45,310 bases of DNA from IMG/VR virus record IMGVR_UViG_3300045988_086497, positions 1-45,310 of that record; one strand, given 5' to 3'. This document shows positions 23,313 through 30,848 of the stretch, piece after piece (the first letter of the stretch is position 1; the number at the start of each line of letters is the position of its first letter). This DNA comes from a virus. The position numbers were made by a program, and so were the translations under genes. The notes beneath the pieces are model-generated. The model ran no database searches and was not told the origin of the DNA. It worked only from the letters and a program-made list of their open reading frames with translations.

Positions 23313-23506
23313 AACGTTATTTTGAAAAATTAGGAATTAAAGTTTTAAAAACCATGGCACAATCAGCAGTTGGTGTCATTGGAGCTAGCACGTTGATTGC
23401 ACAAGTCGATTGGAGAGTGGTTGTTTCAACTGCTCTGTTATCTGGCTTGGTTTGTATTTTGACAAATCTATCTGATTTGAAGGAGGAAGATGTCGATGAA
23501 AATTAA
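23309..23506 (+). CDS. Holin (two TM helices, acidic C-terminus)
   Basis: 65 aa, two hydrophobic segments, charged tail EEDVDEN, overlaps endolysin start. Confidence 0.65.
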
Positions 23507-24770
23507 ACGAACTCTTGCAAGCTTTGCTTTAGCAGTTGGCTTACTATTACAATCAACAGCTTATGCTGCGGTTGGCGACCAAGGCGTAGACTGGTCTCGC
23601 TATCAAGGTACGAATGGGATTTTTGGATATGCGCATGATAAGTTTGCCATTATCCAAATTGGTGGTGTTAACGGTGGTGGCATGTACGGGCAAACCACGT
23701 ATGAAACACAAGTGGCGTCAGCAATCGCACAAGGTAAACGTGCACATACTTACATCTGGTATCAAGTCGGCGGAAACGCAAGTCTTGGTGAACAAGTGTT
23801 AAACACATTCTTGCCGCAGGTTCAAACACCTAAAGGCTCAATTGTAGCCTTGGATTATGAAAGCGGTGCTAGTGCTGATAAACAAGCAAACACTAACGCT
23901 ATTCTGCATGGCATGCGAATGATTAAGACAGCAGGCTATACACCTATGTATTACAGCTATAAACCATATACAGTAGCTAACGTGTATGTCGACCAAATTA
24001 TTCGTGAGTTTCCGAATTCACTTTGGATGGCTGCTTATCCTAATTATGCGGTAACACCAACGCCAAATTACAATGTGTTCCCATCAATGGACGGTGTAGC
24101 AATTTACCAATTTACGTCAACATATATTGCTGGTGGTCTTGACGGGAATATTGATTTAACTGGTATTACGGACAATGGCTACACGAAACACAATAATCCT
24201 AAATCTGAAACACCAGCGATTAGTCAAGGTCAACAAGCGGACAACACGCCTAAATCTGACATTGCTGTAGGAAATCAAGTTAAAGTTAAATTTAGCGCTA
24301 ACGCATGGGCAACTGGTGAAGCTATTCCAAATTGGGTTAAAGGTCGTACATATGACGTAGCACAAGTGTCTGGCAGTCGTGTATTGTTAGCAGGTATTAA
24401 TTCGTGGATTAATAAAGCAGACGTGGAAATTATCTCAGTTTCATCTGCGCCAATTCAAGCGCCAGCAACTAATACGTACACAGTACGTTCTGGTGACACA
24501 CTTTCCAGCATTGCTGCCAAATTTGGTACAAGCTATCAAGCACTAGCAAGCTTGAATGGGATTGCTAATCCAAACCTTATCTACGTTGGACAAGTATTGC
24601 AAGTGACTGGTTCAGCAAGCACTGGTTCAGTTTACTACACAGTGCGCGCAGGTGATAATCTTTCAAGCATTGCAAGTCGTTACGGTACTAGCTACACATC
24701 AATCGCTAGTCTTAATGGTCTTACCAATCCAAACTTGATTTATGCAGGTCAAACACTTAAAATTAAATAG
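23490..24770 (+). CDS. Endolysin: signal peptide + GH25 muramidase + central domain + two LysM repeats
   Basis: N-terminal [23 protein letters not shown]|A; GH25-type [11 protein letters not shown]; two C-terminal YTVR.GD.LSSIA..(F/Y)GTSY...LNG..NPNLIY.GQ.L repeats. Confidence 0.9.
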
Positions 24771-24954: not shown

Positions 24955-25172
24955 TGGTTAAAAGACGATTAAAGTTCATTTCTAACCCAACGTTCTTGTC
25001 TATGCGTTGAATTCGTAGTGATACGAACATATAATTGAAGCACGTTATGTGGCTTGGCAGAGCTTAAAAACTGTTCCTCGGCGATAAGCCTAAAAAGCAC
25101 AATGAGGAGTTAGAGAAGTCGCTTGTCTCTAATCGTTAACCCCGCTGGAGGTTATCCAGCCTTGCTTTTTTT
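24955..25172 (+). ncRNA. Candidate structured RNA / cis-regulatory leader upstream of the PanA gene
   Basis: No ORF; GGTTAA..CGATTA (24955-70) pairs with TAATCGTTAACC (25129-40); TTCGTA-GTGA-TACGAA GNRA hairpin (25011-26); GCTGGA/TCCAGC hairpin plus T7 at 25143-71. Confidence 0.45.
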
Positions 25173-25228: not shown

Positions 25229-25702
25229 ATGATTGATGTATTAAAAATTGTCAATTGGTTCAAAGTTCGAAATTATTCAGACATGAAAACTAATGATAAT
25301 GTTGAAGCTTTGACTCAATTAAAAGTAATGAAATTGTTGTACTATGCTCAAGGTGTATCGTTAGCCTTATATGATAAATTATTGTTTCCGGAAAAAATTC
25401 TAGCTTGGAAATATGGTCCAGCTATTCAAGAAGTGTATGATGTATACAGAGGATCAAGAGCGATAGTCGATATCACAAGTGATGGGATGAGTGATGAGGA
25501 AATTGGAGATTACCAAGAAGTAAACTCTAATCAAGAAGTAGCACTTATTTTAAATGCAGTTGTTGACGCATACGGCGACATGTCTGCAATAGAATTAATG
25601 AAGCAAACACATGAAGAAGCTCCATGGTTAGAAACAACTCAAAGTCAGGAAATCGATGTTAATCTAATCAAAGATTTTTTTGTTAAAGAAATAGTTGAAT
25701 GA
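25229..25702 (+). CDS. Panacea-domain protein (PanA / DUF4065, SocA-like antitoxin family)
   Basis: LTQLKVMKLLYYAQGVSLALYDKLLFPEKILAWKYGPAIQEVYDVY matches the DUF4065 core signature. Confidence 0.85.
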   Translation: MIDVLKIVNWFKVRNYSDMKTNDNVEALTQLKVMKLLYYAQGVSLALYDKLLFPEKILAWKYGPAIQEVYDVYRGSRAIVDITSDGMSDEEIGDYQEVNSNQEVALILNAVVDAYGDMSAIELMKQTHEEAPWLETTQSQEIDVNLIKDFFVKEIVE

Positions 25703-26121
25703 CAAAAATTAAAAGTAAAAAAGTAAAATCAAGACCAAAAATAAAGTCTAATAAACTTGAAGATTTTAAACCAGAATATGTTCAATTTAATTTTTCATTT
25801 ATTACTAAACACGAGAAATATAATTTAGAAAATAATAATTTAATCCATACGCTTTTACTAGAAAAAATTTATTATTTATCTTCTATGGACTGGGTTCAAG
25901 TGTTGGCTCTTAGGAAGGAGCAAGGAATTGAGACACTTAGCTCCCATGCATTAAAAAGATTCACTATACCCCTTGAATTCAAGGAGAGACGAGATGACTA
26001 TTGCACTGATAAATTTTTCGTGTTTCGCTTAAAAAATCAAGGCAGAGTAATTGGAAAGATGATAGATAAGACATTTTATATACTGGCTATTGATACAACA
26101 TTTGATTTGTATAAACATTAA
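25699..26121 (+). CDS. Putative cognate toxin of PanA (unassigned family; C-terminus loosely RelE/ParE-like)
   Basis: ATGA-coupled to the PanA gene; basic N-terminus; C-terminal FFVFRLKNQGRVIGKMIDKTFYILAIDTTFDLYKH. Confidence 0.5.
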   Translation: MTKIKSKKVKSRPKIKSNKLEDFKPEYVQFNFSFITKHEKYNLENNNLIHTLLLEKIYYLSSMDWVQVLALRKEQGIETLSSHALKRFTIPLEFKERRDDYCTDKFFVFRLKNQGRVIGKMIDKTFYILAIDTTFDLYKH

Positions 26122-26149: not shown

Positions 26150-26173
26150 AATTTTGTTGACGTCAACAAAATT
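26150..26173. promoter_or_regulatory. 24-bp perfect palindrome AATTTTGTTGAC|GTCAACAAAATT (putative operator)
   Basis: Perfect dyad abutting the terminator and overlapping the -35 of the next promoter. Confidence 0.6.
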
Positions 26174-26200
26174 GGCAGTCATACATGTTTATTGTATAAT
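26172..26200 (+). promoter_or_regulatory. Promoter TTGGCA-17-TATAAT
   Basis: Hexamers and 17-nt spacer read directly. Confidence 0.5.
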
Positions 26201-26203
26201 AGT

Positions 26204-26318
26204 TGCTGTAAGAGTGTAAAGGTCTTACTAGATAGGCAATGAGTGGGCTGGCGAGTACACGTTAAACTAAATACAGCAGGACTTCTTTGCAGGACTAGCT
26301 CACGCTAGTCATTTTTTT
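26204..26318 (+). ncRNA. Candidate small RNA (about 110 nt)
   Basis: No ORF; TGCTGT (26204-09) / ACAGCA (26273-78) closing pairs, GTAAGA/TCTTAC hairpin, terminator GACTAGC-TCAC-GCTAGTC + T7 (26293-26318). Confidence 0.45.
26293..26318 (+). terminator. Intrinsic terminator of the candidate small RNA unit
   Basis: GACTAGC-TCAC-GCTAGTC, one A, then TTTTTTT. Confidence 0.8.
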
Positions 26319-26319
26319 A

Positions 26320-26348
26320 TTGTTTCAAAAGTTAACATATGTTATAAT
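26320..26348 (+). promoter_or_regulatory. Promoter TTGTTT-17-TATAAT with TGn extension
   Basis: TGTTATAAT at 26340-48; -35-like hexamer 17 nt upstream. Confidence 0.55.
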
Positions 26349-26353
26349 ATTAT

Positions 26354-27001
26354 TATCGCAAGTTTAAAACAACTAACTAAATAATTTAGTGAAGATTGTT
26401 TGACAGCATGCTAAAGTTACATGCTTAATAGCTCGTTACGCTAATAGCGGGATACTGTTATTAGATAAGTAATCAATCTTTGATTGTTGCGAAGTGAGAG
26501 AATAGCAAGAGTGCGTGTAGCGTGGAGAATATGTGTAGCTAGGCTAAATCTAAACGGTGGTGGCGATAATAGACGTCTCTGTGAGAAATAACCCTGCAAA
26601 GCCCAAGCTTGACCGCTTGAAGCAAGTAGGGAGCTGTCAAAATAAGCCATTGTGCGCATTGACGAGTGAAAAGCTCGTTGCTTACACTAAAAGATTGTAC
26701 AAGTAGCCCAAAGGCGCAGTCATTGGAATATCTTTATATTGATACATTTAAAAATTTTCTGATACATTTAAAACATATTTCTGAATGTTGGGTGAACGTT
26801 GAAGGTAACCAATCCTGTCTAGTCATTAAACCTCTTAGGAAGTTGTGAGATAGCTCCTCATAGCTCAGACCTAAGACGACTATCAGCTAATAAGTTGCAT
26901 ATATTTGAAGCAGAGCGAAGGCTCATTTAGTTAGTTGTTTTAAATTTGTGATATAATTGTTGTATTAAGGGTCTTGAGCTAGCTTGCGCTAGCTCTTTTT
27001 T
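26354..27001 (+). ncRNA. Candidate large structured ncRNA (about 650 nt; ROOL/GOLLD-like context, family unverified)
   Basis: No RBS-preceded ORF. 29-bp closing helix 26354-82 / 26925-53 (27 Watson-Crick pairs, 2 G-U pairs). Internal hairpins (AGCATG/CATGCT, CAATC/GATTG, GACGAG/CTCGTT, TCTTAGG/CCTAAGA). Strong terminator at 26976-27001. Confidence 0.5.
26976..27001 (+). terminator. Intrinsic terminator of the large RNA unit
   Basis: GAGCTAGC-TTGC-GCTAGCTC followed by TTTTTT. Confidence 0.85.
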
Positions 27002-27087: not shown

Positions 27088-27116
27088 TTGACATTATATG
27101 CAATATTGTATATAAT
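27088..27116 (+). promoter_or_regulatory. Cassette promoter copy 1 (TTGACA-17-TATAAT)
   Basis: Consensus hexamers; about 80 percent identical to copies 2 and 3 over roughly 50 bp. Confidence 0.7.
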
Positions 27117-27176: not shown

Positions 27177-27299
27177 ATGAAAAAGCATAAACGCAAACAA
27201 AAGAAAAAAGTTAGCAACGAAACAAAAGTAAATTTGATAATTGCAGTTATCAACTTACTAATCGCATTGCTAACTTTAATCAAAACACTATTTGATTAA
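27177..27299 (+). CDS. 40-aa micro-peptide, basic N-terminus + one TM helix (type I toxin-like)
   Basis: AAAGGAG RBS 8 nt upstream of the ATG; MKKHKRKQKKKVSNETKVNLIIAVINLLIALLTLIKTLFD. Confidence 0.45.
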   Translation: MKKHKRKQKKKVSNETKVNLIIAVINLLIALLTLIKTLFD

Positions 27300-27355
27300 T
27301 CTTATTCATAATGGGAGCGGGGCAAACGCCCCGAACCTATTATGTGTTTATGTTA

Positions 27356-27383
27356 ATTATAACAAAAGGTAGCCAAAATGCAA
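27356..27383 (-). promoter_or_regulatory. Convergent minus-strand promoter (TTGCAT-16-TGtTATAAT) that would give an antisense RNA over the 40-aa ORF
   Basis: Read on the reverse complement of 27356-27383. Confidence 0.45.
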
Positions 27384-27461
27384 GATAAAGACATTAGACG
27401 AATAACTTTGATTTTAATTATTATAACTGTTATCATCCTTATTATTTCTGCAATGTTGTAA
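27378..27461 (+). CDS. 27-aa hydrophobic micro-peptide
   Basis: MQDKDIRRITLILIIITVIILIISAML; weak AAAGG RBS. Confidence 0.35.
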   Translation: MQDKDIRRITLILIIITVIILIISAML

Positions 27462-27468
27462 AAAACTC

Positions 27469-27497
27469 TTGACAATATATATAATATTGTATATAAT
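27469..27497 (+). promoter_or_regulatory. Cassette promoter copy 2 (TTGACA-17-TATAAT)
   Basis: Lies within the 53-bp block 27461-27513, identical to 28409-28461. Confidence 0.7.
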
Positions 27498-27537: not shown

Positions 27538-27903
27538 ATGATTAAATGGAACGGAAAATCTACAAACGGCACTTGGAAAAAAGAAATTGTTGCAAACGAC
27601 TATGAAAGTTTGCTAGAAGAATTGGTTGATCGTGACATTATCGATGGCTACTGGAACATGGATAGCCAAGCTTTTGACGGACTTTGCGATTGTTCAGAAA
27701 TGCTTGAAAATCTTCGTGATGAGTATAATGAAGCTATCGAAGAAGACGACGATGAAAAAATGGCAAGTTTTGAAAAACAATTCGATGATATTGATTGGCA
27801 CGAAGATGTATTTAGTAAATTGTCTGATGATGATTTTGAATATGTAATTCGTGGTTGCAATAGCCAAGCATACTACCAAGAATTTGAAAAAGTAGAAGAT
27901 TAA
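27538..27903 (+). CDS. Strongly acidic small protein (121 aa)
   Basis: GAGG RBS; 36 D/E vs 11 K/R counted by eye; no TM segment or signal peptide. Confidence 0.7.
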   Translation: MIKWNGKSTNGTWKKEIVANDYESLLEELVDRDIIDGYWNMDSQAFDGLCDCSEMLENLRDEYNEAIEEDDDEKMASFEKQFDDIDWHEDVFSKLSDDDFEYVIRGCNSQAYYQEFEKVED

Positions 27904-27905
27904 TC

Positions 27906-27928
27906 AAGCGGTCGTATTGACCGCTTTT
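27906..27928 (+). terminator. Weak terminator / attenuator hairpin
   Basis: AAGCGGTC / GACCGCTT stem with a short T run. Confidence 0.45.
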
Positions 27929-27947
27929 ATATAAAGGAGAGAATAAC

Positions 27948-28217
27948 ATGGCTTACAACTGGCAACAATTCAAAAACGGACTTTTCGGTTTTTCATACGA
28001 TTATGAAGAACTACTAGCGGATTTAAAAGAAGATATTGCAACTGGTGATGTAGGCGATAAAATCGTAGTCATTCGCTACCGCAGAGATGATACAGACTAC
28101 AGACCAATTCGTGATTATCTATATGAGGGTGAAGCAGTAAGCGAAGATGAAGAATATAGTTTCGAGAACACAGCTGACGTTTTGGAAGAAATGGAAGCAA
28201 TGACAAGGATTTTTTAA
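27948..28217 (+). CDS. Acidic small protein (89 aa)
   Basis: AGGAGAG RBS; 23 D/E vs 9 K/R. Confidence 0.7.
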   Translation: MAYNWQQFKNGLFGFSYDYEELLADLKEDIATGDVGDKIVVIRYRRDDTDYRPIRDYLYEGEAVSEDEEYSFENTADVLEEMEAMTRIF

Positions 28218-28227
28218 GGAGGGGAAA

Positions 28228-28455
28228 ATGGAAGCAAACAGTAAAGACATTGAATGGCTTTTAGAAAACGCAACACAGTACATGATTTCAAAAGAAACGA
28301 ATGTACCGCAATCTAAAATTTCAAGATTAAAAAACGGAAAAATAAAAATGGAAAATTTAACGTTCGAAGTTGCTAGTATTTTAACGGATTTTTCTAAAAA
28401 ACTTCAAAAAAAACTCTTGACAATATATATAATATTGTATATAATAAGTATGTAA
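28228..28455 (+). CDS. Short XRE/Cro-like HTH protein whose 3' end runs into promoter copy 3
   Basis: GGAGGGG RBS; ISKETNVPQSKISRLKNGK HTH; the last ~13 codons are encoded by the repeated promoter block. Confidence 0.6.
   Translation: MEANSKDIEWLLENATQYMISKETNVPQSKISRLKNGKIKMENLTFEVASILTDFSKKLQKKLLTIYIILYIISM
28417..28445 (+). promoter_or_regulatory. Cassette promoter copy 3 (TTGACA-17-TATAAT)
   Basis: Lies within the 53-bp block 28409-28461, identical to 27461-27513. Confidence 0.7.
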
Positions 28456-28485
28456 GATAAAGAAAGACGAAATGAGGTAATTAAA

Positions 28486-28851
28486 ATGTTTGAAACAACT
28501 TTCTTAGTATTTTTTGATAACGGTCATGATTTTTATAATTTAGAAGTAAATGCTTATATTAGCGAAAATCCCGAACTAAGCAACGATGATATAGTAGCTT
28601 TAACGGAAGAATTTGAAAGTGAAGCACGTCATACCATTGGCAGAGGTTATTGTGGTGAATGCATAGGATTCCAAATTGCTGATAGTGTATGGGATTTGCA
28701 AGAAGAAGAAGGAAATGTTTCCTACAATGAAGAAACTTGCGAAATGTATGTTACAAATCCCGATTTTAAATGGCTAGAAATTTCTTGCGGCAAAGATGAC
28801 ATCATAAAAGCTTTTGAAGCACAAGAAGGCAAAGCAGATGATGACGAATAA
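28486..28851 (+). CDS. Strongly acidic small protein (121 aa) with a CGEC motif
   Basis: GAGG RBS; 31 D/E vs 6 K/R. Confidence 0.7.
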   Translation: MFETTFLVFFDNGHDFYNLEVNAYISENPELSNDDIVALTEEFESEARHTIGRGYCGECIGFQIADSVWDLQEEEGNVSYNEETCEMYVTNPDFKWLEISCGKDDIIKAFEAQEGKADDDE

Positions 28852-28873
28852 ATGAATATATGTTATACTATAA

Positions 28874-28899
28874 GTACCTCTTTTCGAGGTACTTTTTTT
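28874..28899 (+). terminator. Intrinsic terminator (first of a tandem pair)
   Basis: GTACCTC-TTTTC-GAGGTAC followed by TTTTTTT. Confidence 0.8.
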
Positions 28900-28912
28900 A
28901 TCTTACAAATTG

Positions 28913-28939
28913 CACCCGATTTTTTCGGGTGTTTTTTTT
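28913..28939 (+). terminator. Intrinsic terminator (second of a tandem pair)
   Basis: CACCCGA-TTTTT-TCGGGTG followed by TTTTTTTT. Confidence 0.8.
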
Positions 28940-29176: not shown

Positions 29177-30337
29177 TTACTTGATTGCACGCAAGAATGA
29201 ATCAGTAACTTCGTTAGCCACCTCATCTTGGATGTGCGTGTATTTCTGCGTCATATAAGCTGTTGAATGCCCCAATGCCACTGCCATGTGTTCAATAGGA
29301 ACGCCCGCAATCTGCCCTTGTGTAGCAAAGAAATGCCTCATCATATGAGGGGTGGCGTGAATATCGCAATTTCTGTTTACTTTTTTAAAGTTTGTAAATA
29401 TACGACTACAAGCGACTGGCTTTCCAGCATCCTTTCGAACTCTCTCACCAGCATCTAAAAAAAGAAAGTCGCTTTTTGAAAGAATCCGACCAGCTTTCTT
29501 AGCAATTTCGTTAGAAGTGTTTATTGCTGTTTTTAATAGTGCGCTAGTTTCTTCATCAACGACTACATAGCGCCTTGACGTTTTGGTTTTCATCCCTTTT
29601 CCGTTTGGTCTGCGATAAGTTCGGCTTTCGTCTAAAAATATTTTAAAACGATTACCTACTAACTCTAAAGAATTGAATTTTACTCCCACAACTTCGCTAC
29701 GTCGAAGCCCAAAATAGGTAAGACGCACCATTACGTAATTGTATTGAGACAATACTTTTTTAGCGCAGTTATCCCATTTTCTAAAATCTTCCAGAGAAAT
29801 TTGTTTGTTCTTTGGTTTGATTTCATTTTCTCCAATGTAGATTTTTAAAATAGGATTCTTATCAAGATAACCATTAACTACAGCATCGTTTATCATCGCT
29901 TCAAAAATGCCATTGGCTTGAACAACACTTGTTCTAGCATACTTTTTCAGCAACTGTGTAATGTGTTCTTCATAGTCAAGTCTTTCAATCTCTTTGAGCC
30001 TGACATTTCCAAAACGTTTTTGAAAACAATGTCTGTACTGTGTATCTTTGTTCGCTATCGTATCTGGCGCCCAACGCCCAGTTTTAATACGATTCTCGCT
30101 GTATATCTGCCAGTAATCATTAACAGTCATATTTTTACGTGGGTCGTAGTCACCAGTTGCAATTTTGTTTTCAATTTCAGCAAGTGCCTGTCTGGCTTCT
30201 GCAACTGTTTTTAAGCCACTAGCGCTCACTTCTGTTTGCTTACCATACAACTTGAATTTTCGGCGAACGTAGTATCGTTTGCCTTTTTTAGTTTCGTATG
30301 TATAAATATTTGGATATTTTGTCTTATTGTATTTCAT
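29177..30337 (-). CDS. int: Tyrosine integrase
   Basis: 386 aa; GLRRSE (Arg), HATPHMMRHFFAT (His-x-x-Arg), LGHSTAYMTQKYTH (His ... Tyr) catalytic motifs. Confidence 0.95.
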   Translation of the reverse strand: MKYNKTKYPNIYTYETKKGKRYYVRRKFKLYGKQTEVSASGLKTVAEARQALAEIENKIATGDYDPRKNMTVNDYWQIYSENRIKTGRWAPDTIANKDTQYRHCFQKRFGNVRLKEIERLDYEEHITQLLKKYARTSVVQANGIFEAMINDAVVNGYLDKNPILKIYIGENEIKPKNKQISLEDFRKWDNCAKKVLSQYNYVMVRLTYFGLRRSEVVGVKFNSLELVGNRFKIFLDESRTYRRPNGKGMKTKTSRRYVVVDEETSALLKTAINTSNEIAKKAGRILSKSDFLFLDAGERVRKDAGKPVACSRIFTNFKKVNRNCDIHATPHMMRHFFATQGQIAGVPIEHMAVALGHSTAYMTQKYTHIQDEVANEVTDSFLRAIK

Positions 30338-30393: not shown

Positions 30394-30422
30394 TTGACAA
30401 TCACCCCTTTCAATGATAAAAT
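30394..30422 (+). promoter_or_regulatory. Promoter TTGACA-17-TAAAAT facing away from int
   Basis: Hexamers and spacer read directly. Confidence 0.55.
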
Positions 30423-30428
30423 GAGTAT

Positions 30429-30520
30429 ATGAAAAGCACTCTTTTACTAGAGTTCTTTTTATATCAAATGCTTACCCTTACACTCAAAGTTTGGCGATGG
30501 AGAGTGTGAGGGATTTTTTT
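30429..30520 (+). ncRNA. Candidate ~90-nt sRNA or leaderless 26-aa micro-peptide transcript
   Basis: Predicted start coincides with ATG 30429 (MKSTLLLEFFLYQMLTLTLKVWRWRV); terminator CCCTTACACTC / GAGTGTGAGGG + T7 at 30475-30520. Confidence 0.4.
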
Positions 30521-30797
30521 ATTTGCTGTTTAATTTTTTTAGTTCATCGATAATTTGTTGGTTTTGATTAATTAAAAGCCAGTTTTGTTCTACTAATGCA
30601 GATAAGTAAGAAAGCTTAGTTTGGTCGACGCCACTATTAAACGAAAGCGCCAGTCCTGCTTTGATAAGTCCATTACCCGCCATTTCATCTGCAATGCGTT
30701 GAACTTGAGCATAACTATCTTGAGATAATCCTTTAACACCACGAGCTTCAAGGTAAGCTTCAGTCTTTTCTTCTTTTGTTTTTCCAAACAATGCCAT
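30519..30797 (-). CDS. Hypothetical soluble protein of the lysogeny module
   Basis: GGAGGA RBS favours the second ATG (30797); between int and the ImmA-like gene, a common site for lysogen-expressed genes. Confidence 0.65.
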   Translation of the reverse strand: MALFGKTKEEKTEAYLEARGVKGLSQDSYAQVQRIADEMAGNGLIKAGLALSFNSGVDQTKLSYLSALVEQNWLLINQNQQIIDELKKLNSK

Positions 30798-30848
30798 ATT
30801 TTCCTCCATATTTTCAGCTTTTGACGTGGTTCAGTTTTGCACGTAATT

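Follow-up and report, generated by a model that had tools for sequence, protein, structure and literature searches.

What is the role of three small, strongly acidic proteins that a phage encodes side by side around a putative regulator? They lie at 27538-28851 of IMG/VR virus record IMGVR_UViG_3300045988_086497, analyzed here as one stretch of 45,310 nucleotides (the window; positions 1 to 45,310 of the record). Open reading frame 1 (ORF1, 27538-27903, + strand) encodes 121 aa with 36 D/E and 11 K/R (net charge -25), ORF2 (27948-28217, + strand) 89 aa with 23 D/E and 9 K/R (-14), and ORF4 (28486-28851, + strand) 121 aa with 31 D/E and 6 K/R (-25). An earlier note, made from the sequence alone, had proposed DNA mimics with an anti-defense function and named Ocr, ArdA and Arn as analogues. 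Its coordinates, lengths and residue counts were exact. The three proteins occupy ranks 1-3 for acidity among 73 non-overlapping ORFs of the window, with net charges per residue of -0.21, -0.21 and -0.16 and isoelectric points of about 4.05-4.08. The embedded helix-turn-helix (HTH) gene of 75 aa, described in the note as XRE-like, is present (ORF3, 28228-28455, + strand) and is a homolog of the anti-CRISPR-associated (Aca) repressor Aca11. The segment of 27.09-28.93 kb is probably an Aca11-regulated anti-CRISPR (Acr), or more broadly anti-defense, island in the post-lysin region of a phage of the Streptococcus bovis/equinus group.

The three acidic proteins are unrelated to one another, as far as profiles can tell. 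Profile-profile comparison of their families with hhalign yielded probabilities of 0.2%, 35% and 0.2%, and kinship was rejected; the absence of obvious similarity observed earlier thus also holds at this level. Ratios of nonsynonymous to synonymous substitutions (dN/dS) against homologs from other phages range from 0.04 to 0.23. The ORFs are therefore genuine protein-coding genes under purifying selection. NCBIfam holds no named family for any of them. Searches in Pfam and PHROG gave no match to Ocr, ArdA or Arn, and neither did fold searches with the models of ORF1 and ORF4. Current annotation pipelines leave all four genes of the island 'hypothetical'.

ORF1 and the inhibitory domain of AcrIIA15

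An AlphaFold2 (AF2) model of ORF1, built with a 20-sequence alignment, reached a predicted local distance difference test score (pLDDT) of 94.8. It consists of two N-terminal strands, six helices and a C-terminal strand (E-E-H-H-H-H-H-H-E). In a Foldseek search of the PDB, the top three matches were all AcrIIA15 (E values 2.4e-3 to 1.6e-2) and the sole matches with a probability of 1.00; the fourth had an E value of 1.5. The best match was 8jft_C, the C-terminal domain on SaCas9 with single guide RNA (E 2.4e-3, template modeling scores 0.55/0.59, 23% identity over 119 columns). A search of the PDB sequences with the ORF1-family profile missed AcrIIA15; the link required the fold search and a search of a representative protein library. 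There, the hidden Markov model of the ORF1 family retrieved 45 relatives among 1.84 billion representative proteins, two of them fused to an HTH domain, P0093 (174 aa) and P0103 (172 aa). The ORF1 profile matches P0103 over residues 64-172 (E 1.3e-4) and P0093 over its C-terminal domain (E 2.2e-5). P0103 in turn matches AcrIIA15 with an E value of 4.3e-21 and the chain comprising only the C-terminal domain with 1.5e-17, and P0093 matches AcrIIA15 with 2.4e-9.

Mutation of Y161 and Y162 abolishes the activity of AcrIIA15, and S158 is likewise essential for inhibition. Cryo-electron microscopy revealed the C-terminal domain as a double-stranded DNA (dsDNA) mimic in the site of Cas9 that binds the protospacer adjacent motif (PAM) (PMC10901769). 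In the joint alignment, AcrIIA15 ...ENSSSQVYYHEFEI stands opposite ORF1 ...RGCNSQAYYQEFEK, so that S158, Y161 and Y162 correspond to S109, Y112 and Y113. The two tyrosines are kept in ORF1 and in 30/35 and 32/35 family members, respectively. Because the fold match, the bridging profiles and the Tyr-Tyr motif agree, ORF1 is filed in the AcrIIA15 C-terminal-domain superfamily. By homology and model, it appears to be the best anti-CRISPR candidate in the window.

The gene neighborhoods point in the same direction. Acr candidates have been selected by guilt by association, i.e. a length below 300 aa, a position on the same strand directly adjoining an aca gene, and fusion to an Aca in some homologs (Song et al., 2022). 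Members of the ORF1 family adjoin Aca11, Aca12 or Aca13, and the domain is HTH-fused in P0093, P0103 and AcrIIA15. A homolog lies directly 3' of an Aca11 homolog and its operator promoter in prophage L018. Directly 5' of Aca12, with a 4-nt overlap, homologs were found in Streptococcus sp. HSISM1 and HMSC074B11; they also precede Aca12 in two metagenomic prophages (L020, L021). Homologs directly 3' of Aca13 occur in phage Javan288 and in locus L008. With three independent Aca families and natural HTH fusions, ORF1 is, judged by gene context, a candidate of the kind that led to the discovery of AcrIIA24-32.

Two further searches for ORF1 relatives were less productive. The alignment found nothing in GTDB representative genomes, and a degenerate DNA pattern for QAYYQEFE gave true hits at two of nine loci. 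Other assignments of ORF1 were rejected. A summed match to the Cpl-7 cell-wall-binding repeat (PDB 5i8l, E 2.9e-6) resolved into single repeats with E values of 8-40, and Pfam CW_7 was not matched. The region in question is a helical segment of a confidently predicted, different fold, and the match was judged spurious. Sub-threshold Pfam and PHROG matches to tail assembly chaperones, S100 and ExsD were dismissed as compositional.

ORF3, a homolog of the repressor Aca11

ORF3 matches Aca11 (PDB 9lx2) over residues 1-64 with an E value of 2.7e-11, the N-terminal HTH domain of AcrIIA15 with 1e-4 and phrog_1529 with 1.4e-18. The pattern IEWLL.NA..Y.ISK...V.Q..IS.L.N.K...ENLT is common to ORF3 and the Aca11 reference (Song et al. 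2022 Table S1, PMC8934645). Residues shown or predicted to contact DNA in Aca11 are Y18, K22, Q28, S32, K38 and R39 (PMC12282945, PMC12658196). ORF3 keeps five of the six (Y18, K22, Q28, S32, K38), while position 39 is an isoleucine between K38 and K40. Aca11 acts as a repressor of promoters both 5' and 3' of its gene (PMC12282945). Its operator is an inverted repeat located between or over the -35 and -10 boxes (PMC12282945, PMC12658196). Given this homology to a characterized anti-CRISPR-associated repressor, ORF3 is predicted to repress the promoters of the island.

Promoters and putative operators

The 'very strong promoters' suspected in the earlier note are three perfect consensus promoters on the + strand (TTGACA-17-TATAAT, 12/12 positions). 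Copy 1 is located at 27088-27116, copy 2 at 27469-27497 and copy 3 at 28417-28445, where the last 12 codons of ORF3 run through it. All three lie inside an 87-nt direct-repeat module (family D1, reference copy 2), and copy 3 is 92% identical to copy 2 over 87 nt. Each contains a 24-bp palindrome-like element that begins at the final base of the -35 box and takes in the whole -10 box. In copy 1, the inverted repeat (27093-27116) reads ATTATATGCAAT/ATTGTATATAAT, one mismatch from a perfect palindrome. The putative Aca11 operators of copies 2 and 3 are located at 27474-27497 and 28422-28445. Compared with ATTATATACAAT/ATTGTATATAAT, the three elements have 1, 2 and 2 mismatches; three occurrences were counted, where chance would give 0.00. 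In perfect form, the palindrome is present twice beside a 51%-identical Aca11 homolog in the unrelated prophage L018, whose flanking promoters are almost identical to copy 1. This comparative evidence suggests that the palindrome is the operator of this Aca11 subtype.

Copy 2 would drive ORF1, ORF2 and the aca11 homolog, and copy 3 would drive ORF4. A GC-rich hairpin, AAGCGGTC-GTAT-TGACCGCTT and then a short T/A tract, lies directly 3' of ORF1 (27906-27926, + strand). The terminator scan called this hairpin on the other strand; its role may be attenuation or weak termination between ORF1 and ORF2. Two intrinsic terminators from the same scan (28872-28894 and 28912-28932, + strand) close the ORF4 unit before the attachment-site and integrase region. 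Copy 1 does not precede an acidic protein. Behind it come a 40-aa peptide that has a basic N-terminus and a single transmembrane segment (27177-27299, + strand), a GC hairpin and a 27-aa transmembrane peptide (27378-27461, + strand). Matches of these peptides to type I toxin-like families are weak and sub-threshold. It is uncertain whether this first cassette (27177-27461) is part of the anti-defense island.

ORF2, the C-terminal domain of Aca12 and paratox

A tblastn search with ORF2 detected 34-41% identity to the C-terminal ~80 residues of phage proteins of 128-143 aa. These relatives include ORF57 of O1205, orf140b of Sfi21 and orf60 of TP-J34 from S. thermophilus, as well as proteins from S. 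uberis, S. mitis and S. mutans phages. They are encoded by the last gene before the attachment site and carry an N-terminal HTH. A search for the motif FSYDY in Table S1 identified them as the Aca12 family (Song et al., 2022). Against seven Aca12 proteins, ORF2 showed 33-41% identity, with E values of 5e-10 to 9e-15 in a small local database. Aca12 genes follow AcrIIA5 in Sfi21, O1205 and phiKSM96, and an AcrIIA31-like gene in MissE2. ORF2 begins ~10 residues before FSYDY. It is a relative of one Aca12 domain and not an Aca12 member, because the N-terminal HTH is missing. In terms of guilt by association, ORF2 homologs adjoin Aca11 or Aca13, and the domain is fused to an HTH in Aca12. Together, ORF2 and ORF3 look like a split, order-swapped counterpart of an Aca12-type protein, the HTH of which has been replaced by one of the Aca11 family.

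Two genes upstream of Aca12 in the related phages are annotated as hypothetical. TP-J34 orf57 (L007, 1238-1789) encodes 183 aa, the size reported for AcrIIA6, and was likened to it by size alone. MissE2_0002 (L005, 2128-2331) resembles AcrIIA31 when the two are placed side by side and compared by eye.

The relation to paratox raises the strongest competing explanation. ORF2 may be a paratox-type blocker of ComR or of other HTH or DNA-binding proteins, stopping competence or rewiring transcription rather than acting against CRISPR. It would then shield the prophage from recombination, like paratox at the same end of S. pyogenes prophages. Paratox (PF24313) is the sole Pfam match of ORF2 (19.9 bits, E 5.8e-4; curated cut-off 27 bits). 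It is matched by 9 of 14 members of the ORF2 family, all below the threshold, with a best E value of 2.4e-4. The paratox protein Prx is the top PDB match of the family profile (E 0.017). An hhalign comparison of the alignment of ORF2 and Aca12 C-terminal domains with six paratox sequences gave a probability of 91.3% and an E value of 9.7e-7 over Prx residues 4-61, i.e. its full length. Through E6, E9 and D32, Prx holds an arginine in the recognition helix of ComR and of Esub1, and it binds many HTH proteins (PMC11754733). These residues align with the acidic D25, E28 and the nearly invariant D56 (D56-Y57) of ORF2, and the genomic position among the last genes before the attachment site is equal. 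However, ORF2 has a 22-residue N-terminal extension with the invariant FSYDY and a 6-residue insertion, neither of which is present in Prx. S. equinus elements have canonical paratox genes of their own, so that ORF2 cannot simply be taken for the local paratox. The closest relatives of ORF2 are Aca12 C-terminal domains inside acr operons, and Aca12 is cited as a domain of AcrIIA36 (PMC13551039). A paratox-type function has a real though minor chance of being correct. Homology of ORF2 and Aca12 at the domain level is secure; the link to paratox, traced through profiles, is remote and probable.

A more speculative and rather unlikely proposal would combine these observations. The paratox fold could be a portable module for gripping DNA-binding surfaces, which streptococcal phages have put to use against competence, CRISPR or repressors. 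Paratox, ORF2 and the Aca12 C-terminal domain would then derive from one ancestral domain. The HTH-free ORF2 would act in trans on Cas9 or on an HTH protein such as ComR or even Aca11. In the last case, it would be an anti-repressor by which the island tunes its own shut-off. If this is true, ORF1 and ORF2 together would indicate that Acr domains and Aca HTH domains, fused or encoded separately, are shuffled between elements of Staphylococcus and Streptococcus.

ORF4, an orphan with a conserved context

ORF4 has 11 homologs in 5.8 billion clusters, none of them named, and no Pfam, PHROG or NCBIfam family. A tblastn search of phage records returned chance matches only. The AF2 model is poor (pLDDT 63), and fold searches with it in PDB and BFVD gave no match with an E value below 0.1. 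The dN/dS values are 0.06-0.11.

The context is more informative. A separate consensus promoter that contains an inverted repeat precedes each of the ORF4 homologs examined. The homologs lie downstream of Aca11 or Aca13; a fusion was not seen. In L008, the homolog is located directly 3' of Aca13; the consensus promoter in front of it contains an inverted repeat of the Aca13 type, and a disrupted ORF1 homolog and an ORF2 homolog lie upstream of Aca13. In L009-L011, six small cassettes each have a consensus promoter and an inverted repeat with 13-bp arms, and the ORF4 homolog closes the series. Layouts such as that of L008 indicate that the order ORF1-ORF2-[Aca]-promoter-ORF4 is conserved as a module, and that the Aca gene has been exchanged along with the operators that match it. 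By context, ORF4 is a candidate anti-defense protein.

The array in L009 (618-4348; ENA ERZ18327520, contig k141_195835) comprises six promoters with arms of the type ATATAGTATATAA-N-TTATATACTATAT before ORFs of 76-182 aa. No Aca gene is visible within 4.9 kb, and the array consists of candidate anti-defense cassettes. A protein of 140 aa on an ENA metagenome contig, P0037, combines in one reading frame an ORF4-like body and the C-terminal ~25 residues of an ORF2-like protein. It suggests recombination of neighboring cassettes via the acidic tracts.

Proposed mechanism

The anatomy of genes and promoters, the homologies, the ORF1 fold with its key residues, the association with three Aca families and the purifying selection are compatible with the following course of expression, binding and inhibition. 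On entry of the phage DNA, the host RNA polymerase with sigma-A would fire the consensus promoters without the need for a phage factor. Promoter 2 would yield a single transcript of ORF1, ORF2 and aca11 (ORF3), and promoter 3 that of ORF4. The prediction for ORF1 is that it imitates dsDNA by its negative charge, occupies the PAM-binding cleft of the type II-A Cas9 of the host and keeps target DNA from binding. ORF2 would bind a DNA-binding surface on a host or phage protein; Cas effectors and HTH regulators, e.g. ComR, are candidates. ORF4 would be a third, orphan candidate inhibitor. The accumulating Aca11 dimer would finally bind the 24-bp inverted repeat in all three promoter copies and turn the island down.

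Weighing the alternatives

Several points weigh against an Aca11-regulated anti-CRISPR island. ORF1 is ~21% identical to the AcrIIA15 C-terminal domain (22/104 aligned residues), and the direct Foldseek E value of 2.4e-3 is modest (template modeling scores about 0.55-0.59). Several residues that contact SaCas9 are changed in ORF1 (D72 to N10, Y97 to I35, Y141 to F92, S157 to N108). The target and even the activity of ORF1 could differ from those of AcrIIA15 because of the low identity and the replaced contacts. A kept tyrosine anchor with diverged peripheral contacts is as expected if another Cas9 is addressed. ORF3 lacks Arg39, which is essential in the characterized Aca11; a co-variation of residue 39 with the altered operator sequence is plausible. 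In addition, the end of ORF3 (region 28395-28455) has an odd, hydrophobic C-terminal tail of 12 residues, LLTIYIILYIISM. ORF3 stops 12 codons later than its homologs from satellite phages, as an additional A in an A-run removes the usual TGA (inside the next promoter's -35 box) from the reading frame. This may be a genuine variant, or an error in sequencing the homopolymer. Aca11-like genes also occur without Acrs: in the S. equinus satellite Javan218, a 96%-identical HTH gene precedes a SocA/Panacea pair instead of an acidic ORF or Acr. Promoter copy 1 drives tiny membrane peptides. Every Pfam score between ORF2 and paratox is under the curated cut-off, and either domain of Aca12 could carry the Acr activity of AcrIIA36. 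Finally, the window is phage DNA, and the CRISPR-Cas content of the host lies outside its view.

It is unlikely that the acidic proteins are general DNA mimics in the manner of Ocr and ArdA, directed against type I restriction-modification, bacteriophage exclusion (BREX), DNA sensing or other defenses and not against Cas9. The extreme negative charge would fit such a function, and ORF4 is without a relative of known function. Aca-regulated operons are predicted to carry diverse anti-defense genes besides Acrs (PMC13551039), and the paratox ligand Esub1 is a type I S-subunit-like protein (PMC11754733). However, likeness to Ocr, ArdA or Arn was found neither in sequence nor, with the models of ORF1 and ORF4, in fold, and the sole structural and sequence relative of ORF1 is a Cas9 inhibitor. 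The flanking regulators, like the neighbors in related phages, all have ties to type II-A Acrs.

Ordinary moron cassettes under an Aca11-like repressor, with functions in superinfection exclusion, toxin-antitoxin systems or host physiology and an incidental acidity, are very improbable: the gene order in Javan218, the peptides behind promoter copy 1, the orf16.1 family adjoining ORF1 and ORF4 homologs and the negative tests of the Aca-adjacent Cand1 and Cand3 (PMC12282945) speak for them, but ORF1 is homologous to a proven Acr domain including the two essential tyrosines, ORF1 and ORF2 are independently tied to three Aca families and matching operator-bearing promoters, and all three acidic genes are under purifying selection.

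The anti-CRISPR island is the favored explanation. It supports the earlier proposal in its essentials and modifies it in details. The idea of DNA mimicry or anti-defense gains from the homology of ORF1 to a dsDNA-mimic domain and from the relation of ORF2 to Aca12 and paratox; ORF4 joins them by context. The impression that recognisable motifs are absent fails for ORF1 and ORF2 once profiles and structures are used. Ocr, ArdA and Arn turned out not to be relatives by sequence or, for ORF1 and ORF4, by fold, and the evidence suggests CRISPR-Cas9 as the target instead of restriction-modification. The proposed structure prediction gave a confident model for ORF1 that matches AcrIIA15; for ORF4, it provided no fold match, and Ocr and ArdA were left unmatched.

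A match of the three ORFs to candidates already tested was also sought in Table S1 of Song et al. (2022) and rejected. Motifs of ORF1 and ORF4 are absent from it, and FSYDY occurs in Aca12 only. The comparison with named Acrs covered this table, and the ORFs may be identical with AcrIIA33, AcrIIA34 or AcrIIA35.

Genomic setting and neighboring elements

In a BLAST search of the window segment 25.0-29.2 kb against phage records, all matches were to phages and satellites of Streptococcus (group of S. equinus, S. infantarius, S. macedonicus and S. gallolyticus). The window is a temperate siphovirus of the S. bovis/equinus group. According to the ORF map, the lysin gene is located at 23490-24770 with the structural genes upstream of it. 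An accessory region of ~4 kb (+ strand) lies between the lysin and the integrase gene (29177-30337, - strand), and the repressor-side genes are found beyond. The segment with the acidic ORFs is the variable or moron region between lysin and attachment site of a temperate phage. A lysogen-expressed position had been assumed for it before. The equivalent region in S. thermophilus phages is described as early lytic with consensus sigma-A promoters (PMC13575424).

The accessory region harbors other elements. A Bacilli-1 small RNA (25011-25075, + strand; RF02931, 78.6 bits vs. a gathering score of 55.6) is located directly 3' of the lysin terminator, with a promoter-like site at 25007-25035. A gene with a SocA/Panacea domain follows (25229-25702, + strand; Pfam PF13274, 1.7e-20) and overlaps a basic partner of 140 aa (25699-26121, phrog_38762). 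The pair (25229-26121) looks toxin-antitoxin-like. A comparable pair is situated 3' of the Aca11-like gene in the satellite phage Javan218. At 26172-26316 (+ strand), a near-consensus promoter (TTGGCA-17-TATAAT, 26172-26200) and an intrinsic terminator (26293-26310) enclose ~110 nt that contain no sizeable ORF and have no Rfam match. This stretch just upstream of the ROOL RNA may be an undescribed small RNA. The ROOL RNA (26361-26943, + strand) matches Rfam RF03087 over the full length, model positions 1-574, with 248.6 bits vs. a gathering score of 99.1. It is flanked by a 40-nt inverted repeat (26343-26382 / 26925-26964), followed by a terminator at 26976-26995. ROOL is a large structured RNA of unknown function and shares the accessory region with the anti-CRISPR island. 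Beyond the integrase start, an 11/12 promoter with an extended -10 TG is located at 30394-30422 (+ strand). A weak match to ctRNA_pT181 (30416-30528, + strand; 31.7 bits, under the gathering score of 56, E 0.28) is antisense to the start of gene 30519-30809; the lysogeny module may thus encode an antisense RNA here.

Comparison with known systems

Ocr, ArdA and Arn have a small size, a very low isoelectric point and a presumed DNA mimicry in common with the acidic ORFs. However, they target restriction-modification systems and not Cas9.

AcrIIA15 from Staphylococcus delphini (PDB 8JFO, 8JFT, 8JFU) shares its fold of three beta-strands and five or six helices with ORF1. The N-terminal strand motif reads MIKWxGK in ORF1 and its family and IVYRGR in AcrIIA15. 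The C-terminal signature SQ[AV]YY[QH]EFE, including the two tyrosines essential for Cas9 binding, is common to both. Both proteins are strongly negative, and both genes are located behind a consensus promoter with an inverted repeat in the -35/-10 region under a related HTH. The HTH is fused in AcrIIA15, whereas ORF1 is free-standing with the HTH in trans (Aca11). The host of ORF1 is Streptococcus, so its Cas9 target would differ from the SauCas9 of AcrIIA15. For the inhibitory domain of AcrIIA15, an orphan fold has been reported from Staphylococcus. Streptococcus phages now add a sizeable family of free-standing relatives, with the signature MIKWxGK...[SG][QN]AYYQEFE and ties to three Aca regulators. 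If ORF1 acts as predicted, the family comprises candidate inhibitors of streptococcal Cas9 orthologs. It would also represent a natural experiment in the retargeting of a DNA-mimic scaffold, with the Tyr-Tyr anchor kept and the peripheral contacts changed.

Aca11 of Streptococcus sp. F0441 (WP_009730540.1, PDB 9LX2) is the characterized counterpart of ORF3. Both loci contain duplicated TTGACA-17-TATAxT promoters up- and downstream of the aca11 gene. The promoters share a 24-bp inverted repeat from the end of the -35 box through the -10 box, followed by TGTAAGATAAA; for F0441, this layout was mapped by experiment. The published F0441 promoter probe GTGTTGACAGTATATAACAAATGTTATATACTATACTTGTAAGATAAATAAAA and the window repeat CTCTTGACAATATATATAATATTGTATATAATAAGTATGTAAGATAAAAAAAG are arranged equally (PMC12658196). 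Promoter copy 3 fits the known Aca11 architecture with a second regulated operon downstream. The operator half-site is ATTATATACAAT in the window and AGTATATAACA for F0441 Aca11. Further differences are the exchange of Arg39 for Ile, the hydrophobic extension of 12 residues in ORF3, and three promoter copies vs. two. The cargo genes of the window are not among the Aca11-associated Acrs in Table S1 of Song et al. (2022). The module of TTGACA, 24-bp inverted repeat and TGTAAGATAAA is a search handle for more cassettes, e.g. ORF4 or the six-promoter array of L009.

The C-terminal domain of Aca12 (WP_033585136.1) and ORF2 have the invariant FSYDY, R43, DY and the C-terminal EM..IF in common, and both are located at the end of the post-lysin variable region. 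Aca12 has a fused HTH, whereas ORF2 is followed by a separate HTH gene of another family (Aca11), i.e. the domain order is split and swapped. Paratox (Prx, PF24313; PDB 6CKA, 7N10) resembles ORF2 as a small acidic phage protein at the prophage end with conserved acidic grip residues. ORF2 is longer (89 aa vs. ~60 aa) by an additional N-terminal segment and a loop insertion. It lies inside an acr-aca operon, whereas paratox lies beside a toxin gene. A relation of paratox and Aca12 would join the literatures on competence control and anti-CRISPRs and offer a testable idea for the role of the Aca12 C-terminal domain.

The post-lysin region of S. thermophilus phages occupies the same slot as the island and is known for AcrIIA5, AcrIIA6, AcrIIIA2 and others; related phages contain AcrIIA5 (Sfi21 orf140a) and Aca12 in it. 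Consensus sigma-A promoters, including internal ones, small unrelated genes and the Acr content are common to both. The window differs in host clade, in the temperate nature of the phage and in the gene set, and its region additionally has the ROOL RNA and the SocA/Panacea pair. An acr-aca island with an autorepressor and duplicated operator promoters is well known, and an early burst followed by shut-off through Aca is the established logic of such loci. Three points appear to be new: the streptococcal family of free-standing AcrIIA15-type inhibitory domains with its links to Aca11, Aca12 and Aca13, the homology of ORF2, the Aca12 C-terminal domain and paratox, and the orphan candidate ORF4.

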